Of a DNA stretch of 64,000 bases, positions 6,439 through 47,059 are shown in pieces. Every line of letters begins with the position of its first letter. Positions within the stretch are counted from its first letter, which is position 1. Position numbers and translations under genes: made by a program. The notes below the pieces were generated by a model. That model was not told the origin of the DNA. It saw only the letters and a program-made list of their open reading frames with translations, and made no database searches. Source of the DNA: an uncultured Colwellia sp. (GTDB lineage Bacteria > Pseudomonadota > Gammaproteobacteria > Enterobacterales > Alteromonadaceae); NCBI GenBank assembly GCA_913058145.1, contig CAJXQM010000013.1, positions 6,807-70,806 of the forward strand, written 5' to 3'.

Positions 6439-8259
6439 ATGAGCAATGAAGTGAGTGTAAGCGTGAGTAAAAAAGCAAGCAATCGCAGCAGTCAACCCAC
6501 CACTATCGCATGGCGTTATTACGTAGTGCTGGCTATAGTGGTTTTGATTTATGCAGGATTGCTAGCACGTAGTGCTTATATTCAAATAATCGAACCGGAC
6601 ATGCTTAAAAAGCAAGGAGATATGCGCTCAATGCGGGTTGCTGCCAATACAGTGCAGCGTGGTTCTATTATAGATAGAAATGGTGATGAACTTGCCATTA
6701 GTGTACCGGTAGAAACGGTGTGGGCTGATCCAAAAATCATTATGGATAATAACGCCCTGATGATGGCTGAACATTGGCAAGCACTGGCTGATATTTTAGG
6801 TCAAAAGGTTAATGAATTAACGACTCGTGTGGTACGTCATCCCACAAAGCGCTTTGTTTATTTAGAGCGAAAAATATCTCCCGCTATAGCTAATTATATT
6901 CGTGAATTGAAAATCCCTGGTATTCATCTGCGTAAAGAATCAAAACGTTTTTATCCAACCGGTGAAATAAGTGCCCATATTGTTGGTTTTACCAATGTGG
7001 ATGATAAGGGGATTGAAGGAGTTGAACGTGTATATGACCAACTTCTTACGGGTGTAGGGGGCAGCAAACGTTTTAGAAAAGATGCTCAAGGTCGTAAAAT
7101 TGAAATTTTATCTGTTGATGCGTCCCAAGAAGCAAAAAATATTACCCTAACCATTGATCAGCGCATTCAAGTAATTGCTTATCAAGAACTCAAAGGCGCT
7201 GTACAGGCCTTTAAAGCGACTTCTGGTTCGGTAGTTGTGGCCGATATCCATACGGGTGAAATATTAGCGATGGCAAATAGCCCATCTTATAATCCTAATA
7301 ATCGTCGTAATACGGCTATTCACCGCTTCCGTAATCGCGCCATTACCGATATTTACGAGCCCGGCTCAACGATGAAACCCCTTACCGCATTAGCCGCATT
7401 AGAGTTTGGCTCAGCTAAACTTAATACGGTTATTGATACTAGTCCTGGTTGGATGCGTTTAGGCGGTAGACGGGTTAACGACCCTATTAATCGGGGTAAA
7501 CTATCAATTGAAGAAATTTTAGTCACCTCATCAAATATGGGCACCACTAAACTTGCTTTGTCAGTGCCAAAAAACTTTTTGCTTGATAAATTTTTTGATG
7601 CAGGTTTTGCCGATGATACCGGTACAGGTTTGGTTGGTGAAAGCTCTGGCATGATGCATGACCGGCCGCGATGGTCAAAATTTGAGTTAGCGACGCTATC
7701 GTGGGGTTATGGCCTAGCAATAACACCGATGCAACTAGCCCGTTTTTACGCGACGTTAGCCAATGGAGGTATTAAGCGCGAACTGTCTATTGTTAAAACA
7801 GAACAAGTAAACGAAGGTGTACGAATTTTTTCTCAAGCGAACACTGAAGCGGTGATGGCTATGTTAGAAAGCGTTGTTGATGAGCATGTACAAAAAGCTA
7901 AAGTCCCGGGCTATCGCGTGGGTGGTAAAACGGGTACCTCTTTTAAGGCGGTAGCAGGTGGTTATGGTAACGATTATGTGGGCTTATTTGCCGGTGTTGC
8001 CCCAATCTCTGATCCTAAAGTTGTGGTAGTTGTGGTTATTAACGATCCCGGTGGCGATCTTTACCATGGTGGAGAAGTGGCTGCGCCAGTGTTTTCTCGT
8101 GTAATGAAAGGGGCGCTACGGGTACTAAATGTTGCGCCTGATGCCAATGAAAAGTTAGCGCATCATAATACTGTAATAAATAACAGGGTAAAAAATAATA
8201 CAGTAATAAAAACGATTGATGAATTACGCGTAAGTGCGTCGGAGGCTAATGATGTTTAA
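6439..8259 (+). CDS. ftsI: Penicillin-binding protein 3 (septal transpeptidase)
   Basis: RGSIIDRNG, EPGSTMKP (SxxK), SSN (SxN), KTGT (KTG). Confidence 0.98.
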   Translation: MSNEVSVSVSKKASNRSSQPTTIAWRYYVVLAIVVLIYAGLLARSAYIQIIEPDMLKKQGDMRSMRVAANTVQRGSIIDRNGDELAISVPVETVWADPKIIMDNNALMMAEHWQALADILGQKVNELTTRVVRHPTKRFVYLERKISPAIANYIRELKIPGIHLRKESKRFYPTGEISAHIVGFTNVDDKGIEGVERVYDQLLTGVGGSKRFRKDAQGRKIEILSVDASQEAKNITLTIDQRIQVIAYQELKGAVQAFKATSGSVVVADIHTGEILAMANSPSYNPNNRRNTAIHRFRNRAITDIYEPGSTMKPLTALAALEFGSAKLNTVIDTSPGWMRLGGRRVNDPINRGKLSIEEILVTSSNMGTTKLALSVPKNFLLDKFFDAGFADDTGTGLVGESSGMMHDRPRWSKFELATLSWGYGLAITPMQLARFYATLANGGIKRELSIVKTEQVNEGVRIFSQANTEAVMAMLESVVDEHVQKAKVPGYRVGGKTGTSFKAVAGGYGNDYVGLFAGVAPISDPKVVVVVVINDPGGDLYHGGEVAAPVFSRVMKGALRVLNVAPDANEKLAHHNTVINNRVKNNTVIKTIDELRVSASEANDV

Positions 8260-36866: not shown

Positions 36867-37397
36867 TTAATTACTATTCAAATTTTCATCTCTGCCAATA
36901 ACAGACACATTTAGTGATTGGTCATAAGTTAAACTGCCTTGCAACTTATTTTGTGATGTTAGGTCTTGATAATTCACCGTATTTATCTGCTTGGGGTAAG
37001 TGCCAGTGAGTAGAGTGTTTTTTACCATCAAATTAGCTAAAGAGTCTTTATGCGTACTTTCTTGGTAAACAAACAGCTGCCCTCGTTTAACCTCAAAACC
37101 AATCCAGTTTAGCTTAACAGTTTTGTTGTTACGTTTAAGTACAAAGTGTTGTTCAAAATAGGCTTGTATGTACTGATCATATTTTGGGTGCTCAGGCGAA
37201 AAGTGCACTTGCTTGATCTCAGCAAGGGTGTTTTCGATATCATGAGCAGTGAATTGATGAATAATCTCAATATGCTTGTTTTGGCTATTGAGATTAATGT
37301 CGGTTAGACCAAAAAAATAGGTATGGGCAGCGGCAGATGCCGCGACCCCAACTAACATAATACTAATGAGTATTTTTTTTAAACAAGAAGTAACCAT
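36867..37397 (-). CDS. Exported DUF6702-like protein
   Basis: Signal peptide ending ASA-AAH, HTYFFGLTDI start of the mature chain; overlaps the stop of the M1 peptidase. Confidence 0.7.
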   Translation of the reverse strand: MVTSCLKKILISIMLVGVAASAAAHTYFFGLTDINLNSQNKHIEIIHQFTAHDIENTLAEIKQVHFSPEHPKYDQYIQAYFEQHFVLKRNNKTVKLNWIGFEVKRGQLFVYQESTHKDSLANLMVKNTLLTGTYPKQINTVNYQDLTSQNKLQGSLTYDQSLNVSVIGRDENLNSN

Positions 37398-39760
37398 TAG
37401 CTGTCAGTATTATCCTCTTCTTCATCGTCAGCTGATTTCAATTCTTCATTGTAATCACGCATCATGTCATCTTTTTTACGCTTATAAAGCTCAAAACGAG
37501 ACTTGATAGGGCGAGCAGGCCAATAGTTGTTATTTACATCTACGTCAGCTGTTTCCCATTTATCATCTATTGCTATGGAGGTGATTTCTTTATCACGAAT
37601 TAATAGCTTTGAAGTCTTCTTGCTATTTTTACGCCAGATTTCAGCGGGTAACTTCATCTGTTCAGTGCTGCTGTCAGCATAAGTTATGTCTAAAATAATA
37701 GGCATAACTAAGCCACCTTTATTTTTAAAATCAATAATGTAAAAATTACTTTGGGTTAATAATAAATCTTTTTCCCATTGCTCAAGTTTTTTATTGCTCT
37801 TGTTATATTTATTACGTGCAGCATTGGTGGCGGTAAATTTATCATGTTCATTATAAAAATCTAATAACTCAGGTTTATCTTGAGTACGCAGCCACTGATT
37901 TTTATTAAGGATATTAGTGATATATTCAGGTTTTTCATTATCTAACGCACGCTGCCAAGCTTCTTCAGTATCAGGATTTTGGCTATCAGCAGTATATAAA
38001 TGAATATTACCAAGGGCAATATCTACGTGATCTGTGGTGTAGAACCAGCCTCGGAAAAACCAATCTAAATCAACAGCAGATGCATCTTCCATCGTTCGGA
38101 AAAAGTCTGCTGGGGTTGGGCGTTTAAATTTCCAACGTTGAGCATACTCTTTAAACGCAAAATCAAATAATTCACGACCCATAATAGTTTCACGTAAAAT
38201 ATTTAATGCGGTGGCTGGCTTGCCATAAGCATTATTACCAAACTGCAAAATAGACTCAGAGTTAGTCATGATGGGTACTTGGTTATCACTTTTCATGTAA
38301 CTAGTAATATTTGCGGCATGGCCACGGCGAGATGGGTAATCGTCTTCCCATGCTTGCTCGGCTAAAAACTGCAAGAAAGTATTCAAACCTTCATCCATCC
38401 AAGTCCATTGGCGTTCATCAGAATTCACTATCATAGGGAAGTAGTTATGGCCCACTTCATGAATAATAACGCCAACTAAACCGTATTTTGTGCGGCGAGA
38501 ATAGGTTTTCTCACCCGTTTCTTTATCCCGTGTTGGGCGTGGACCGTTAAAGGTGATCATGGGGTATTCCATGCCGCCAACAGGACCATTGACTGAAATA
38601 GATACCGGGTATGGATAGTCAAAAGTATATTTACTGTATTGCTCCATGGTATGGATAATAGCTTCTGTAGAGTATTTCTCCCACAAAGGATTGCCTTCAT
38701 TTGGATAGAAAGACATTGCCATCGTGTTATTATCGCCATGTTGATAACCTTGGGCATCCCAAATAAATTTACGACTTGAAGCAAAGGCAAAGTCACGCAC
38801 GTTTTTAGCTTTAAAGTGCCAAGTGTTAGTTTTTGTTGAGCGAGACTTCTCGTTTTCTAACGCTTCGTCAACCGTTACAATCAGTACTGGCTTTTTCGCC
38901 GTTTTTGCTTTGGCTAAACGTTTACGTTGTATTTTAGTTAATACTTTATTTGAATTTTGTAGTTCACCCGTAGCGGCAACAATATGATCACTAGGCACCG
39001 TAATTTTTACATCATAATCACCAAATTCTAAGGTAAATTCTCCGCTTCCAATAAACTGCTTGTTTTGCCAACCCATTATGTCGTAATAGGCCACTGCACG
39101 TGGGAACCAACTAGCGACTTCGTATAGATAGTTGTCGTCTTCTTTAAAGTACTCATAACCTGAGCGGCCACCCAATACTTTCTGTTCGTGTAATTGATAA
39201 TTCCACTGAATATTAAATGCGGTATCGTCACCCGATTTAAGTGGCTTAGGTAAGTCAATTCGTAGCATGGTGCCGTTAATAGTGTAATTTATCGGTTTGC
39301 CATTGCTCGCTGTAACGTTAGTGATTTCATAACCACCATGGAATTTTGGCGACTCAATCATATCGCGAAGACCACGGTAAGTAACTTTTTTCAACGGTGC
39401 TGTTGATTTCGATAACTTAGCATCTGAGCCGCGTTTTAACTTGTTTTGATCAAGCTGTAACCAGAGGTAACGTAAGGTATCAGGTGAATTATTTTGATAG
39501 CTTAATGTCTCTGATCCCGTTAATTGTTGGGTTTTATCATCCAATTTGATTTCAATGTCGTAATCAACTTGTTGCTGCCAGTATTTATGACCCGGAGCAC
39601 CTGAAGCCGTACGATAAACATTTGGTGTTGGGAGAACTTCTTCTAGTTGACGAAACTTGTCACTAGCAATGGTGTTTTTAGCTTGTGTACTTAAACTAAC
39701 TAAGTTGCCAGCTAACGCAACCGATAGACAAATGACCGCTGTCGATATTGAATATTTCAT
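37397..39760 (-). CDS. Exported M1 family (gluzincin) metallopeptidase; start MKYSISTA at 39760
   Basis: GGMEYP, HEVGH followed by the distal Glu in WMDEG; signal peptide. Confidence 0.92.
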   Translation of the reverse strand: MKYSISTAVICLSVALAGNLVSLSTQAKNTIASDKFRQLEEVLPTPNVYRTASGAPGHKYWQQQVDYDIEIKLDDKTQQLTGSETLSYQNNSPDTLRYLWLQLDQNKLKRGSDAKLSKSTAPLKKVTYRGLRDMIESPKFHGGYEITNVTASNGKPINYTINGTMLRIDLPKPLKSGDDTAFNIQWNYQLHEQKVLGGRSGYEYFKEDDNYLYEVASWFPRAVAYYDIMGWQNKQFIGSGEFTLEFGDYDVKITVPSDHIVAATGELQNSNKVLTKIQRKRLAKAKTAKKPVLIVTVDEALENEKSRSTKTNTWHFKAKNVRDFAFASSRKFIWDAQGYQHGDNNTMAMSFYPNEGNPLWEKYSTEAIIHTMEQYSKYTFDYPYPVSISVNGPVGGMEYPMITFNGPRPTRDKETGEKTYSRRTKYGLVGVIIHEVGHNYFPMIVNSDERQWTWMDEGLNTFLQFLAEQAWEDDYPSRRGHAANITSYMKSDNQVPIMTNSESILQFGNNAYGKPATALNILRETIMGRELFDFAFKEYAQRWKFKRPTPADFFRTMEDASAVDLDWFFRGWFYTTDHVDIALGNIHLYTADSQNPDTEEAWQRALDNEKPEYITNILNKNQWLRTQDKPELLDFYNEHDKFTATNAARNKYNKSNKKLEQWEKDLLLTQSNFYIIDFKNKGGLVMPIILDITYADSSTEQMKLPAEIWRKNSKKTSKLLIRDKEITSIAIDDKWETADVDVNNNYWPARPIKSRFELYKRKKDDMMRDYNEELKSADDEEEDNTDS

Positions 39761-40073
39761 AACCTTCCAATGAGTAATAATGATTTTTTGTGGAACACAA
39801 TTTTTAACAATAAACTTTATATCATGTATACGAATCACATCGTAATAGAGAATGGGCTTTTGTGATGAAATATAATTATTTTGAGATAAGGGAATTGTAC
39901 AGTATAGGTTACAACTAGCTTTATTCGCGGAGACTAATACGCATTAAACTAGCTAAGGGGATCAAATTTTAATGCAAATAAACGCTCAAAAAAACAGCGC
40001 TTGATTTAGTGGTAGATAAGCTAGCTATTGGGCTATTCAAGAAGATGACTTAGCTAGTCTAAGGGCTATAATA

Positions 40074-40902: not shown

Positions 40903-42276
40903 GTGAATAAAGTTACATTGAGTCAAGATGAAAATCTCTCATTTAAAATTAGCCACCAATTGCTTCCACAAGAACAGCAACGCATTGATCTGTATTTTTC
41001 TCTCCCTGTTGAAATGGGCATTAGTCCAAGTACCTTGAATGCGGAAGATTACTTTTATAGTAATATCAAAAGCCATAGCGCTTATTATTCAGCGAAATTA
41101 CACTTACCTTTAGTACGTAGTCGTTTTATTAGTCAACGTTTTGTTGGCGAAAAAAAGGAAGCACAAAGTGATTATCGTTTAAACCTTAATCTATATTCCT
41201 ACCAATTAAAAATTGCGCTTGATGCCGATATCAAACAAACATTAAAACTAAAAAGCGCAGAAGAATTTTATCCTGCAGCGATTGAATTAGCCGAACAAAT
41301 AAGAGGCTTAACTAAAAAATTGCGCCGCTATACACCGTCAGATAATAAACTTAGCTCTTTTTTTGACAATGCGGATAACTATTTAAGTTGGCATGTTGAG
41401 CAATCCTTTTTAAAACTTCTCTCAAAAGGACCAAAAAGCAGTGATTTTTCGGGAGAACGTGAATTTTTATTTGTGTTATGCAAAGAAGAAAATAATTACC
41501 GTATAGCCTGTAAATATAACTCAAAAGTCACACTAGACGATCCTAATAGGATCACCAATAAAATGCTTTTACTACAGCGATTAATTGAATATGGTGTGGT
41601 ATTTCAGAAGCAAACGCGTTATTTAGACTTAAACCTAAAGCGTATTGTTCGAGGTGGTGTTACGGCAGTCATCATGGCTTTTGTGATGCTTTTAGTACTT
41701 AATGCTCGTTCAAGCTTTACTGAAGTAACGTTAGCGTTGATTGCTTTTTTAGGCCTAATATATGGATTACGTGAAACATTTAAAGAAGATATTACGGGTC
41801 TTATTTGGAGAAAAATTCAAAAAGGTAGGCCAAAGTGGCAAAACTTATTTCGTCACAGTGTTAATAAAAAACGTATTCTTAGCGAAATTTTATGGCTGGA
41901 ATATATAACCACTCAAGATCTGCCTAAATCGGTTAATGCCTTATTTCAACAGCGTAGACAGCAAAATAAACAAGCAGCACGGTTACTGCATTTTCGTTGT
42001 GACAATAGGGTGCTCACTAAAGAATTTCTACCAGGATATGGTGAAATACAACAACGATTATTCTTTAATTTAACACCTTTTGTACGTTTTTTAAAAAAAG
42101 GAGCGGGTCGTTTATATAGTGTAGATGGACAAAAAGTATCGAGCCAAGCCGTTGAGCGTCGTTATCAAATCAACCTTATTTTACGCTGTGTAGATCAAGA
42201 CGGAGAACATTTACAACGCTTCAAAATCACCTTGAATCGCAGTGAAATAGTGAATATTGAAGCAATGGAAATATAA
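40903..42276 (+). CDS. Hypothetical membrane protein with a central two-helix TM hairpin
   Basis: 457-aa ORF, GTG start; hydrophobic GGVTAVIMAFVMLLVL and VTLALIAFLGLIYGL between two soluble regions. Confidence 0.85.
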   Translation: MNKVTLSQDENLSFKISHQLLPQEQQRIDLYFSLPVEMGISPSTLNAEDYFYSNIKSHSAYYSAKLHLPLVRSRFISQRFVGEKKEAQSDYRLNLNLYSYQLKIALDADIKQTLKLKSAEEFYPAAIELAEQIRGLTKKLRRYTPSDNKLSSFFDNADNYLSWHVEQSFLKLLSKGPKSSDFSGEREFLFVLCKEENNYRIACKYNSKVTLDDPNRITNKMLLLQRLIEYGVVFQKQTRYLDLNLKRIVRGGVTAVIMAFVMLLVLNARSSFTEVTLALIAFLGLIYGLRETFKEDITGLIWRKIQKGRPKWQNLFRHSVNKKRILSEILWLEYITTQDLPKSVNALFQQRRQQNKQAARLLHFRCDNRVLTKEFLPGYGEIQQRLFFNLTPFVRFLKKGAGRLYSVDGQKVSSQAVERRYQINLILRCVDQDGEHLQRFKITLNRSEIVNIEAMEI

Positions 42277-42419: not shown

Positions 42420-42959
42420 ATGCTTCAGAAAGAAAATTGCGGTCTAATCGTTGTAGATATACAGGGAACTTTAGCTAGGATTGTTCAACAGAGCGATTTA
42501 TTTATTGATAATACGGCAAAGCTAATTCAATGTTGTAAATTATTATCTATCCCTATCATATGGCTTGAACAAAACCCTAAAGGTTTAGGGTCGACTGTCC
42601 CCGAAATATCTGATTTGCTAACCGAGTCTGCGGTAAATGAAAAATCTCACTTTAATGCATTATTTGAAGACTCGATTAAAGATGCAATTAAAGCGACAGA
42701 TAAAAAACGTTGGTTAGTGGTAGGAATAGAAGCACATATTTGTGTCTATCAAACCGTTTTGGCTTTGTTAAATGAAGGTTTTGAAGTGGATGTGGTCTCG
42801 GACTGTATTTCATCTCGTTTAAAATCAAATATAGCATTAGCTTTAGTCAATATGAGAGAAAGTGGAGCCAGTATAACTAGTTTAGAAATGTGTGTTTTTG
42901 AGCTAGTAAAAAAGGCTAAAACGGATAACTTTAGAGAAATATTGTCGGTTATAAAGTAA
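42420..42959 (+). CDS. Isochorismatase-family cysteine hydrolase
   Basis: LIVVDIQ, EQNPKGLG.T, GIEAHICVYQT. Confidence 0.92.
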   Translation: MLQKENCGLIVVDIQGTLARIVQQSDLFIDNTAKLIQCCKLLSIPIIWLEQNPKGLGSTVPEISDLLTESAVNEKSHFNALFEDSIKDAIKATDKKRWLVVGIEAHICVYQTVLALLNEGFEVDVVSDCISSRLKSNIALALVNMRESGASITSLEMCVFELVKKAKTDNFREILSVIK

Positions 42960-43119
42960 AATAACAATATTCGACTCACTTGGTGTTTTGTTCGGTTTTG
43001 TTCAGGCGATGAGAATATTACTTAAAATGATCCTTATTGATCTTATTTTTACGCTTTATATTGACTTCAATGGTTTCATCATTCGGCATCACACAACATT
43101 CTCGTAGGGGTATATTTAC

Positions 43120-43953
43120 ATGTTCAAACGAATACAGTTTTATCGTAGTCACCTTCGGATAATACTTTTGCTTACCATACTGCCAGTCACGCAATTATCT
43201 GCTGAAGAGATTGATCTTAATGAAATTTTGCGCAATACCTCTATGGGAAATTACAGAGGTTATGCCGAATTTAAAATGGCCCATTATGGCAATGCTCATA
43301 CAATTTGGCAGGCTCTTGCCGAGCGCGGAAATGCCGAAGCTAATTTTAATTTAGGAATACTTTACGAAGATGGACTGGGTGTCCGCCAAAATTTGGCCCA
43401 GGCGCTACGTTATTACGAGACTGCCGCTATTGGCGGAAGTTTTAAGGCACAGTACCGGCTAGGGCTGCTTTACTTTGTTGGGGAGATAGTGCCGCTAGAT
43501 AAAGTTAAAGCGAAACGTTGGTTGACGGAGGCTGCCGCAGGAGGTGATCGGGACTCGATAGAGATGTTAGCAATATTGAGTGGTACTCGCAGTAGTAAGC
43601 GAGATAGAGAATTTTTACGTGCGGAAACCGCTCACGCATCTGCCGACTATACTCAAGCAGCAGAAATATGGCAGCGTCTTGCTGATAACAATGATATTAT
43701 TTCTCGAACCCGTTTAGCCTGGTTGTATGAAAAAGGCCAGGGCGTCAAACGGAACCTAAAACGCGCGGCAGAACTATTTCGACAGTCAGCGATGGAGGGT
43801 GACGCTGACGCCCAATATGCGCTTGCGGTAATGTTGCAAACAGGTAAAGGACAGCCGAAAGACCTTGTTGAATCAGAGGTATGGTTACAAAGAGCTGCGG
43901 ATCTAGGGCATCGCGGTGCATCCTTGGCTTTAGCGAATACAACAAAGAAGTAG
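43120..43953 (+). CDS. Exported Sel1-repeat protein
   Basis: Signal peptide; repeats ANFNLGILYEDGLGV, AQYRLGLLY, RLAWLYEKGQGV, AQYALAVMLQTGKG. Confidence 0.92.
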   Translation: MFKRIQFYRSHLRIILLLTILPVTQLSAEEIDLNEILRNTSMGNYRGYAEFKMAHYGNAHTIWQALAERGNAEANFNLGILYEDGLGVRQNLAQALRYYETAAIGGSFKAQYRLGLLYFVGEIVPLDKVKAKRWLTEAAAGGDRDSIEMLAILSGTRSSKRDREFLRAETAHASADYTQAAEIWQRLADNNDIISRTRLAWLYEKGQGVKRNLKRAAELFRQSAMEGDADAQYALAVMLQTGKGQPKDLVESEVWLQRAADLGHRGASLALANTTKK

Positions 43954-44111
43954 GCAACTTGGACTCTCATGTTCTAGTGAGTAATACATTAATCATGAGT
44001 GATATGGTGTAGGTTGAAAGGAGCTAGGGTACTTAAACTGAGAGCGTTAAAATCAAGGGTAGGTTTTGATGAATACAGGAATTTCCATAAACAGCAATCG
44101 AAAAATTCTCT

Positions 44112-44293
44112 TTATACAACATCATCACTTTCAATTTTTTCTCCTTATGTATTACCAAAAGTTCTGCGCATTTTTTTACGGAATGTTGTAGATTCTCAGT
44201 GTATAATCTGGTGGTTTTTTTAACAACAATCGTACAGCGATAGTTAGAGTCACCGTTTGCTTTTGTTCGTTTGGTCATTGTGAGTGACGCCAG
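44112..44293 (-). pseudogene. Eroded N-terminus of a dusA-associated tyrosine integrase
   Basis: Reads (L)ASLTMTKRTKANGDSNYRCTIVVKK; adding one A to the A7 run gives NHQIIH*ESTTFRKK..RTFG; divergent from and adjacent to the dusA 5' end. Confidence 0.7.
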
Positions 44294-44392
44294 TAAAAAA
44301 ACTACTTATTTATGGCGTAACATAAATGGAAAATCACGGTAATTAAAAGAAACTCATGGTAATTAATATAGTACTCATTTCAAGGTTATAGA

Positions 44393-45433
44393 ATGTCAAT
44401 CCCAGTAAAATCGCCACATTTATCGAACCCTATAGATCACCGCCTTTCTGTAGCTCCAATGCTCGATTGGACTGATCGTCACTGTCGATATTTCTATCGT
44501 GCACTGTCAGTGCATACGGTGCTTTATACAGAAATGGTCACCACGGGCGCTATATTGCACGGTAAAGGAGATTATCTTTCTTATAACAATGCTGAACATC
44601 CGTTAGTTTTACAGTTGGGCGGTAGTGATGTCAAAGCGATGACTGAGTGCGCCAAAATTGCCGAGCAGTATGGCTATGATGAAATTAACATTAACGTTGG
44701 TTGTCCGTCAGATAGGGTACAAAATGGTCGTTTTGGCGCATGTTTGATGGCTGAACCTAGCTTAGTGGCCGATTGTGTTAATGAGATGCAAGCAGCCACT
44801 AAAGTGCCTGTGACAGTAAAATCTCGTATTGGTATTGATGACTTAGATAGTTATGCGTTTTTACACACGTTTATTGAGCAAGTGGCACAAGCGGGTTGTC
44901 AGCATTTTATTATTCATGCACGTAAAGCTTGGCTTAGTGGTTTGAGCCCTAAGCAAAACCGTGATATTCCACCACTTGATTACCCGCGTGTATATCAAAT
45001 AAAACAAGATTTTCCTGCGTTAGCAATATCTATCAATGGCGGTATTAAAACGTTTGCAGAGACTAATAATCACTTACAATACCTTGATGGTGTGATGATA
45101 GGTCGTGAAATCTATAATAGTCCTTATTTATTGGCCGAAGCGGATCAACAAATTTATGGTGTTGAAAAAGAGGTCATTTCTCGACAGCAGGTCATTAATT
45201 TAATGGCTGATTATGTTGATGCTTATGTCAGTTCAACACTTGAACAGGGTAATGCCTACCGTAATCCTCGAGCTTGGCACGTATTACGGCACATGTTAGG
45301 TCTGTGTAATGGTTTAGCGGGTGCGCGTCAATTTCGTCGGTATTTGAGTGAATCGGCCAGAGAAGACGATGCTAATGGTAGTACCTTAAAAGAAGCTTTT
45401 GCTAAAGTGACAGCGCTTAATGAACAAACTTAA
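44393..45433 (+). CDS. dusA: tRNA-dihydrouridine(20/20a) synthase
   Basis: SVAPMLDWTDRHCRYF, NINVGCPSDRVQNGRFGACLM, HARKAWLSGLSPKQNR. Confidence 0.98.
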   Translation: MSIPVKSPHLSNPIDHRLSVAPMLDWTDRHCRYFYRALSVHTVLYTEMVTTGAILHGKGDYLSYNNAEHPLVLQLGGSDVKAMTECAKIAEQYGYDEININVGCPSDRVQNGRFGACLMAEPSLVADCVNEMQAATKVPVTVKSRIGIDDLDSYAFLHTFIEQVAQAGCQHFIIHARKAWLSGLSPKQNRDIPPLDYPRVYQIKQDFPALAISINGGIKTFAETNNHLQYLDGVMIGREIYNSPYLLAEADQQIYGVEKEVISRQQVINLMADYVDAYVSSTLEQGNAYRNPRAWHVLRHMLGLCNGLAGARQFRRYLSESAREDDANGSTLKEAFAKVTALNEQT

Positions 45434-45958: not shown

Positions 45959-46300
45959 ATGAATACTTTAAACCGTACAAATATCAGTGTTGCTTTACTA
46001 CTTACTATCAGTGCCTTTTTTAGTCTTAATACCTATGCAGCCCAAACTACTAACATTGAAAGCTCAATTAGTGAATTAGTAATAGCCCAAGGAAAGCAGA
46101 TGATGAATGAATTAAGCGAGCAATTGCAAAAATCGATCACTGAAGAAATAAATAGTTTCACTATCGACTTTTCTTTTGAGGAATCACTTACTAACTCTTT
46201 AGCTTGGATAAAAGGTGAAGAAAACACATTAACGGGTACCGAAAGTGAAAATAGCAAAGTAGTAAATAAACAATCAAAAATTACCAATAAATCATTGTAA
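45959..46300 (+). CDS. Small exported hypothetical protein, first gene of the psp-like operon
   Basis: 113 aa; signal peptide ending TYA-A; amphipathic helical core; AGGA ribosome-binding site. Confidence 0.8.
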   Translation: MNTLNRTNISVALLLTISAFFSLNTYAAQTTNIESSISELVIAQGKQMMNELSEQLQKSITEEINSFTIDFSFEESLTNSLAWIKGEENTLTGTESENSKVVNKQSKITNKSL

Positions 46301-46384
46301 TACCCGTTTCATTAATCAGGTGATTTTGACAAGTAGATATAATCAGCTAGTTAGTGAGCTTGGTATAAATATAGGAGAGAAGTT

Positions 46385-47059
46385 ATGGGATTATTTACAC
46401 GTTTCACTGATATTGTTAATGCTAATATAAATAGCATGCTTGATAAAGCAGAACAACCCGAGAAAATGATCCGCCTGATCATTCAAGAAATGGAAGAGAC
46501 CTTGGTGGAGGTAAGGGCAACGGCGGCAAAAAATATTGCAGAGCAAAAATCTCATACTCGTCGAGTCAACTCTGCAAAGGAAAACATCAATCATTGGCAT
46601 ACTAGAGCCGAGTTAGCGGTAACTAAAAATAAGGAAGATCTTGCTAAGTCAGCGCTAACACAAAAACATAAATATCAAGGTGAATTAGCATTACTAGAAA
46701 AAGAAAATGAGCAGTTAACTGAATTTTTAACCCAAGTACAAGATGACGCATCGCGTTTACAAGAGAAGTTAGCAGAAGCCAAGCGTCGTCAAGCAGCGAT
46801 TACGCTTCGCAAAGAGTCTGCTCAAGTACGATTAAGGGTACGTAAACAAGCTGCTATTTATAATATTGAAGAAGCGATGAGTAAGTTTGAGCGTTATCAA
46901 CAGAAAGTCGACAGAGTTGAAGCGCAAGTTGAAGCTTATGATCTAATCCAATATACGGAAAAAAATCCGAGTTTATCCGCACAATTCTCAGCATTAGAAA
47001 AAAATGAAACGATAGAGCAAGAATTGGCTGAAATGAAGAAAAACACAGTGGCGGCATAG
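46385..47059 (+). CDS. pspA: Phage shock protein A family
   Basis: MGLFTRFTDIVNANINSMLDKAEQPEKMIRLIIQEMEETLVE; long coiled coil; GGAG ribosome-binding site. Confidence 0.95.
   Translation: MGLFTRFTDIVNANINSMLDKAEQPEKMIRLIIQEMEETLVEVRATAAKNIAEQKSHTRRVNSAKENINHWHTRAELAVTKNKEDLAKSALTQKHKYQGELALLEKENEQLTEFLTQVQDDASRLQEKLAEAKRRQAAITLRKESAQVRLRVRKQAAIYNIEEAMSKFERYQQKVDRVEAQVEAYDLIQYTEKNPSLSAQFSALEKNETIEQELAEMKKNTVAA

Follow-up and report, generated by a model that had tools for sequence, protein, structure and literature searches.

A Collapsed dusA-Specific Island in an Uncultured Colwellia Very Probably Survives as a Broken Integrase Stub and a Replaced dusA 5' End

Introduction

What is left of a genomic island after it has decayed inside the gene that it targets, and how much of that gene still belongs to the island? 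This question is raised by a short, broken stretch of minus-strand coding sequence (positions 44112 to 44293) that lies divergently beside dusA in a window of 64,000 nucleotides, the whole stretch of DNA that we analyzed. The window comprises positions 6,807 to 70,806 of contig CAJXQM010000013.1 from an uncultured Colwellia sp. (assembly GCA_913058145.1). We refer to this genome, a 3.0-Mb assembly of 68 contigs, as G000; all other G numbers denote the genomes with which it was compared. A first-pass annotation, made from the letters of the window, had read the stretch as a fossil integrase and had proposed that a dusA island once integrated here and has almost wholly decayed. Homology, the structure of the junction, the native flank, and the parts that are missing all support that overall reading. 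We conclude with high confidence that the stretch is a nonfunctional fossil of the first ~60 to 62 integrase codons of a dusA-specific island (the DAI family), with a history of integration followed by collapse.

Identity of the broken stretch

Translation of the minus strand between 44000 and 44302 yields two neighboring frames that together carry the relic. One reads ..LASLTMTKRTKANGDSNYRCTIVVKK, and the other, shifted by one, reads KNHQIIH*ESTTFRKKMRRTFGNT*GEKIESDDVV* (asterisks are stops). On rereading of the window, the frames quoted in the first-pass annotation and its positions for the A7 run, the TGA, and the CTG proved exact. The frames, homology, and DNA alignments place codons 1 to ~60-62 of a decayed dusA-associated tyrosine integrase gene at 44112 to 44293 on the minus strand. 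Its start, at 44293, is divergent from the dusA ATG at 44393, with a spacer of 99 bp between them.

The read-through peptide shares 36 of 60 residues with an intact integrase from the Colwellia genome G001 (BLASTP, E of 3e-21). It also matches 27 phage records in a tblastn search of 2.3 Gb of phage records (best E of 1e-12), mostly at annotated integrase or recombinase genes; the others fall in stretches that are unannotated or labeled "hypothetical" and that are also matched by the full-length integrase. The top phage match is the integrase of Shewanella phage vB_SspM_M16-3 (55.7% identity over 60 aa, E of 1e-12). Several Colwellia integrases are 60 to 63% identical to the relic, in alignments that begin exactly at their start codons. 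Profile scans of Pfam and PHROGs returned nothing significant for the 55-aa read-through peptide, and residues 1 to 60 of the intact G001 integrase match no Pfam domain. Because Pfam and PHROGs do not recognize the 55-aa peptide, the integrase call rests on pairwise and translated-BLAST homology.

The G001 integrase (P0001) was found by a DNA search of congeneric genomes as an intact 359-aa ORF, divergent from dusA and starting MASFTITKRPKANGDFSYRCAIVVKKNNAIIHRESKTFRKKELARTFGKKRVQEIENEE; its orthologue in G015 has 361 aa. P0001 has a Phage_integrase domain (Pfam, E of 3.5e-20) and carries R222, H306, R309, H332, and Y342. It is 52% identical over its full length to the integrase of phage mEp460 (E of 2e-120), and the integrases of phages BcepIL02, DC1, and H66 follow at 36%, 33%, and 31%; all four phages are named as members of the DAI family (Farrugia 2015, PMC4482086). 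In a scan of relatives that used one genome per species and kept 80 close relatives, from Colwellia, Vibrio, Shewanella, Photobacterium, Psychromonas, Pseudoalteromonas, and others, dusA lies divergently ~110 to 150 bp upstream of the integrase at 67 loci, several of the other 13 being too short upstream. The two traits by which the first-pass annotation had assigned the relic to this family, an integrase-like peptide and a divergent position next to dusA, are thus both borne out, the first by significant integrase matches of the repaired peptide and the second by relatives that match the phage members of Farrugia 2015.

A set of Vibrio cyclitrophicus "PE" elements (PQ189287 to PQ189389, 13 to 15 kb), deposited as phages, encodes an integrase 71 to 72% identical to the Colwellia DAI. 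The gene sits at one end of the record and is annotated merely as a hypothetical protein.

Codons 63 to 359 of the integrase, the catalytic domain included, are deleted from the relic, and the RHRH tetrad and nucleophilic Tyr of tyrosine recombinases are absent with that domain. The first-pass annotation had noted this loss within the stretch, and a tblastn search of the whole 3.0-Mb assembly with the intact integrase extends it to the genome, recovering residues 1 to 60 at the relic only and the rest on no contig. Judged on its sequence, the stretch is a fossil of a DAI member and not a working member. Of the integrase, an 81-aa ORF (44033 to 44278) retains just 21 residues, and the Pfam and PHROGs profile scans assign it to no family; we advise that it not be called a gene in annotation.

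Lesions in the relic

Lesions were called by DNA alignment of the relic to the intact genes of five relatives. Read along the minus strand, the start codon ATG has become CTG (44291 to 44293; "cag" on the plus strand), a run of eight A's has lost 1 nt (A8 to A7, 44215 to 44221; T7 on the plus strand), and a CGA codon has become a TGA stop (44196 to 44198; "tca" on the plus strand). These are followed by a 3-nt deletion at ~44165, a change of AAA AGA to ACA TAA that creates a second stop (44145 to 44147), and a second 1-nt deletion at ~44125. The first-pass annotation had proposed the first three, tracing the TGA to an Arg codon (CGA), the CTG to a lost ATG start, and the broken frame to one missing A. 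The five intact relatives confirm each of these origins and have A8 where the relic has A7; the 3-nt deletion, the TAA stop, the second 1-nt deletion, and the loss of one copy of an 11-bp repeat from the spacer (described below) are additions to its list.

The relic of G013 (L003/L040, G013:C3) shares the CGA-to-TGA change with G000. Every other lesion, the relic boundary, and the DusA N-terminus differ between the two genomes, so the shared stop is insufficient to argue for a single ancient relic. The change probably arose in parallel in the two genomes.

The dusA 5' end and the attachment core

The dusA gene itself (44393 to 45433, plus strand) is intact and encodes tRNA dihydrouridine(20/20a) synthase A of 346 aa, with a Pfam Dus domain and a match to the DusA equivalog NF008774 at an E of 3.8e-152, above the curated cut-off. 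Its codons 1 to ~20-28 (44393 to ~44452-44476, the first ~60 to 84 nt) are of the island type, as comparison with G001 makes apparent. Both ends of a live island are present in that genome. The current dusA of G001 begins MSIPVKPLNPANSIDHRLSCAPMLDWTD, and contig C38 holds the displaced original dusA 5' end MKLAQIINHKLSVAPMLDWTD, which then breaks into island DNA; the two have TGCGCCCATGCTCGATTGGACTGAT in common and diverge immediately after it. In published dusA-specific islands, semiconserved att repeats of 21 bp fall within the dusA 5' end, and the island supplies a replacement for that end (Farrugia 2015, PMC4482086). The G001 ends match both the attachment region and the replacement.

The DusA start of G000, MSIPVKSPHLSNPIDHRLSV, resembles the island-borne MSIPVKPLNPANSIDHRLSC of G001, and it is unlike both the displaced original 5' end of G001, MKLAQIINHKLSV, and the short MISHKLSV start of the 12 species that have no integrase or relic as a direct neighbor of dusA. 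The attachment-site core, codons A-P-M-L-D-W-T-D, reads AGCTCCAATGCTCGATTGGACTGAT in G000 (44452 to 44476, plus strand; the attR-side copy), and over its last 18 bp it agrees without mismatch with the 25-bp stretch common to both G001 island ends. The first-pass annotation had suggested that the present dusA N-terminus may be island derived, and this resemblance, together with a spacer that aligns with those of intact islands, argues in favor of it.

The displaced dusA 5' fragment, which the first-pass annotation had also brought up, is absent from the G000 genome. A blastn-short search of the whole genome with 53 att-region variants found neither that fragment nor a second att copy, the only matches being chance ones of 14 to 17 nt on other contigs. 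One Smith-Waterman candidate between 38001 and 44112 scored 32 against a shuffle maximum of 30; it lies on the wrong strand, inside the isochorismatase frame, and was rejected as chance. Across window and genome, then, the sole att copy is the one inside dusA, and the attL/attR pair is not present. With this core intact, the site should still accept new islands of the DAI family.

The spacer and a putative dusA promoter

The 99-bp spacer between the relic and dusA (44294 to 44392) aligns with the intact-island spacers of G001, G052, and G015 and is to all appearances island derived. It holds two direct repeats, TCA(C/T)GGTAATTAA, at 44334 to 44346 and 44355 to 44367 (period of 21 bp), which are also kept in intact Colwellia islands. 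The 11-bp unit GTACACCATAT is in tandem in intact islands and present in a single copy in the G000 spacer, one copy having been lost. The spacer repeats are candidate binding sites for the integrase (arm type) or for a regulator.

Promoter-like hexamers for dusA are found at 44343 to 44348 (-35) and 44367 to 44372 (-10); they are weak matches to consensus, and the scan of the spacer found 3 sites against 1.9 expected. Another dusA island, IMEVchUSA3, has been shown experimentally to supply the dusA promoter (Durand 2021, PMC8409611). We infer that dusA in G000 is similarly driven by a promoter of island origin within the 99-bp spacer.

DusA N-termini across Colwellia

We surveyed the DusA N-terminus at 30 Colwellia dusA loci and counted 29, G019 being omitted as ambiguous. 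A long N-terminus accompanies an integrase or relic at 14 loci and occurs without one at 3, and a short N-terminus occurs at 12 loci without an integrase or relic and at none with one (Fisher P of ~1e-5, phylogeny not corrected for). Where dusA has no integrase or relic as its direct neighbor (12 species), DusA has a short start of the M(I/T)SHKLSV type. In the 14 species with an adjacent integrase or relic, nearly all DusA N-termini are 10 to 16 residues longer (MSIPVK...), and G000 belongs to this long type. A comparison of dusA N-termini had been put forward in the first-pass annotation; carried out across Colwellia, it finds the type of N-terminus to be associated with an integrase or relic at the locus. 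We take the short form to be ancestral. G041 has a short N-terminus despite an integrase relic 1.46 kb upstream. A long DusA N-terminus with a conserved spacer can serve to mark past island integration in Colwellia and related marine Gammaproteobacteria.

The junction, the Sel1 gene, and the native flank

Against the truncated end of the relic lies a 115-bp fragment of an ISKra4-family transposase gene (44005 to 44119, plus strand), comprising its C-terminal ~41 codons and cut on both sides. The fragment is 84% and 77% identical to copies on G001:C24 and G001:C6 (transposase 3' ends), and the G001 transposase copy matches NF033572 ISKra4 at an E of 3.5e-56. Missing are the ~50 bp at the end of the element and all of its upstream parts, and with them both IS ends. 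The homologies of relic and IS fragment overlap in a TCTTTAT microhomology at ~44108 to 44119, and integrase homology stops at ~codon 62. A clean insertion of the IS into the integrase gene is ruled out by the loss of the terminal ~50 bp; because of that loss and the TCTTTAT overlap, we read the joint as a microhomology deletion.

Next comes a gene for a 277-aa Sel1-repeat protein (43120 to 43953, plus strand; Pfam Sel1, E of 2.8e-37), with a GC content of 46 to 49% against a background of 33 to 38%. The gene is accessory in the genus, with close homologues in just 4 of 55 genomes plus a distant 35% match in G007, and may represent the last surviving cargo of the island that collapsed. The G041 and G015 homologues lie elsewhere, in different contexts, which weighs against the cargo reading.

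Beyond the Sel1 gene, the native chromosomal flank follows directly, with an isochorismatase-family hydrolase gene (42420 to 42959, plus strand; Pfam Isochorismatase) and a gene for a 457-aa protein (40903 to 42276, plus strand) whose position is conserved in relatives. The pair adjoins dusA upstream in G014 as well, and the 457-aa gene is also found upstream of dusA in G013, G004, and G058; in G001, it flanks the island at its far end. In G052, ~14.4 kb, the intact integrase included, stand between the isochorismatase gene and dusA; in G000, the Sel1 gene is the only gene between the native flank and the IS fragment. Most, but not all, dusA-specific islands have an RDF of the PrtN/RdfN type, and the interval between relic and flank in G000 leaves no space for an RDF gene. 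The "zur-dusA interval" of the first-pass annotation is not applicable here, the upstream neighbors being the Sel1-repeat gene and the isochorismatase-family gene. Its picture of a collapsed island agrees well with the order found, namely, a relic adjoining a doubly cut IS fragment, then a GC-rich Sel1 gene, and then native flank.

Decay states across the genus

The dusA 5' end is a recurring integration hotspot in Colwellia. At least 15 of the 30 dusA loci have an integrase, whether intact, damaged, or residual, no more than ~1.5 kb upstream, and G014 has only the island-type 5' end. The states run from an empty site (for example, G023 and G058) through an occupied one (G001, G015, G052, G066, G017, G003, and G056) to sites at which the integrase is damaged (G024), internally deleted (G007 and G041), or reduced to an N-terminal stub (G000/G054 and G013), and finally to the scar of G014, an island-type DusA start and ~50 bp of spacer without integrase. 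The displaced end in G001 carries an older integrase relic of ~65 bp, which, on sequence, indicates serial integration.

The internally deleted relics differ in what lies around them. That of G007 (L005, G007:C1, 690 to 1560) keeps residues 8 to 74 and 338 to 356, with a HicA/HicB-like pair of small ORFs between the pieces. The relic of G041 (L150, G041:C32, 393 to 796) keeps residues 18 to 95 and 321 to 356; an OmpA-like lipoprotein gene and a 99-aa lipoprotein gene stand between it and dusA. Colwellia sp. TT2012 (L126 and L133; NZ_LJYX01000021.1) has two DAI genes on a single contig, separated by ~20 kb. The distal one is preceded by dusA codons ~5 to 27 only, and L091 has the same pattern; from its layout, the TT2012 arrangement would fit tandem islands at one dusA site. 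Just upstream of dusA in G019 (L037, G019:C59, 1171 to 1467), near a large transposase ORF, is a divergent ORF resembling an integrase N-terminus, ..YTINKRSRKKGTVYCARVRAKESGVVTFSKSKTFNSKVAATRWAKE.., which appears from its sequence to be another, more distant type of relic.

A broader proposition is that the Colwellia dusA 5' end is a layered record overwritten by successive DAI islands, in which N-terminus length is a heritable scar even without an integrase (as in G014). In this view, dead remnants may also still pass from one species to another as one block with its edge at the att core, through homologous recombination or, with less likelihood, through a DAI in trans; the zero-difference tract of G000 and G054 stops 75 bp beyond the core. 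As a whole we consider this proposition improbable.

Where the remnant decayed, and whether it is kept

An independent assembly representing the sister species, G054, carries an identical relic. G000 and G054 (G054:C37, L025/L055) have 0 differences over 43232 to 44550 and 4 over 42764 to 43231, and the flanks differ by 1.2 to 5%; the first difference on the right is at 44551, 75 bp past the att core. From this pattern of differences, the remnant appears to lie within a recent recombination tract. Since the tract has no differences and the flanks differ by 1 to 5%, the collapse may predate the arrival of the remnant in one of the two lineages.

The two genomes also differ elsewhere in the window. 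G000 has ~2.8 kb (37185 to 39960) that is absent from G054, the matches at 36981 to 37185 and from 39960 onward being contiguous in G054:C101. G054 lacks ~590 bp downstream of dusA (46109 to 46700), which in G000 hold the 3' part of a 113-aa gene and the first ~105 codons of a pspA-like gene. At 2.3 Mb, G054 is the smallest genome in the genus set.

It is possible, if somewhat doubtful, that the entire collapsed segment (the Sel1 gene, IS fragment, stub, spacer, and dusA 5' end) arrived only recently, already decayed, from a related Colwellia, through homologous recombination across the interval from the isochorismatase gene to dusA. The relic would still be a fossil DAI, and only the place of its decay would differ. 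The run of identity between more divergent flanks speaks for such an import, as does a right edge so close to the att core; the 75 bp past the core are weakly informative, however, as only ~3 differences would be expected there, and the left edge is hidden by a break of the G054 contig inside the isochorismatase gene. The exact remnant occurs in two genomes only, too few to reveal the direction or the source of a transfer.

Retention of the stub for a function is very unlikely, whether the 81-aa ORF or the truncated arm-binding N-terminus were to act as a small regulator or the stub DNA were to form part of the dusA regulatory region. Identity of the tract in G054, the persistence of integrase N-terminal stubs in G013, G007, and G041, and the conservation of the spacer repeats with intact islands could all be taken as signs of selection. 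The stub, however, has lost its start codon, and within 180 bp its reading frame is interrupted by two stops and two frameshifts, and the 81-aa ORF, as noted above, has little integrase sequence and no family match. Relics in other species differ in their boundaries and lesions, and G014 keeps its island-type dusA start without any stub. The identity with G054, moreover, spans obvious junk (the IS fragment), which argues for recency and not for selection.

That the real genome holds an intact integrase and island, which assembly collapsed or sequencing miscalled at homopolymers, is scarcely credible: one lesion does fall in the A7 run, in a draft assembly of 68 contigs, but there are at least six independent lesions, substitutions among them, the contig runs unbroken across both junctions, the remainder of the integrase gene is on no contig, and the independent G054 assembly is base-identical at the relic.

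Discussion

For the fossil of a dusA-specific island, the reading that we prefer, we propose the following history. An island would have integrated by a tyrosine-recombinase crossover within the conserved dusA sequence encoding APMLDWTD, and its own copy, to judge from comparison with relatives, would have replaced the dusA promoter and first codons. The integrase gene would then have gathered point lesions, in an island that would also have contained an ISKra4-family element. Illegitimate deletions, one of them at the TCTTTAT microhomology, would have removed integrase codons 63 to 359 and nearly all of the cargo. The same deletions would have taken the attachment site at the far end, along with the original dusA 5' end that the island had displaced; these parts are absent from the assembly. 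The outcome would be a remnant of ~0.5 to 1.5 kb that is unable to excise, with dusA left permanently on an island-derived N-terminus and, presumably, an island promoter.

G000 offers a clean, lesion-dated case of what finally becomes of a dusA-specific island, in which dusA would remain dependent on an N-terminus, and probably a promoter, from a vanished mobile element. The interest of the locus is limited because the family is known and a decay product is expected in so predictable a place; no new mechanism is revealed.

Among known systems, SXT/R391 ICEs at the 5' end of prfC likewise replace the promoter and N-terminus of their target (cited by Durand 2021, PMC8409611) but differ from dusA islands in having an unrelated integrase family and target gene. 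The integrases of mEp460 and vB_SspM_M16-3, unlike the G000 relic, are complete, functional prophage integrases. A nearer parallel is found in IMEVchUSA3 and the other dusA-specific SGI1-like elements of Vibrio, which also target the dusA 5' end (Durand 2021, PLoS Genet, PMC8409611). For IMEVchUSA3, a new promoter and an altered DusA N-terminus supplied by the element have been demonstrated experimentally (Durand 2021, PMC8409611). The Vibrio elements are intact, use the RDF RdfN for excision, and are mobilized by IncC plasmids, whereas none of that machinery is left at the G000 site.

The closest known systems are the DAI islands (Farrugia 2015, NAR 43:4547, PMC4482086), for example, D1279779_RGP05 of Acinetobacter baumannii and Prophage 03 of Pseudomonas protegens Pf-5. 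G000 shares with them an integrase gene that is divergent from and near the dusA 5' end, a crossover placed in a conserved 5' stretch, and a 5' end supplied by the island. It departs from them in having ~62 broken codons and no catalytic domain, attL, displaced dusA fragment, or clear cargo. Because even the "phage remnants" of Farrugia 2015 still had an integrase, we regard the G000 relic as a much later stage of decay of the same kind of island.
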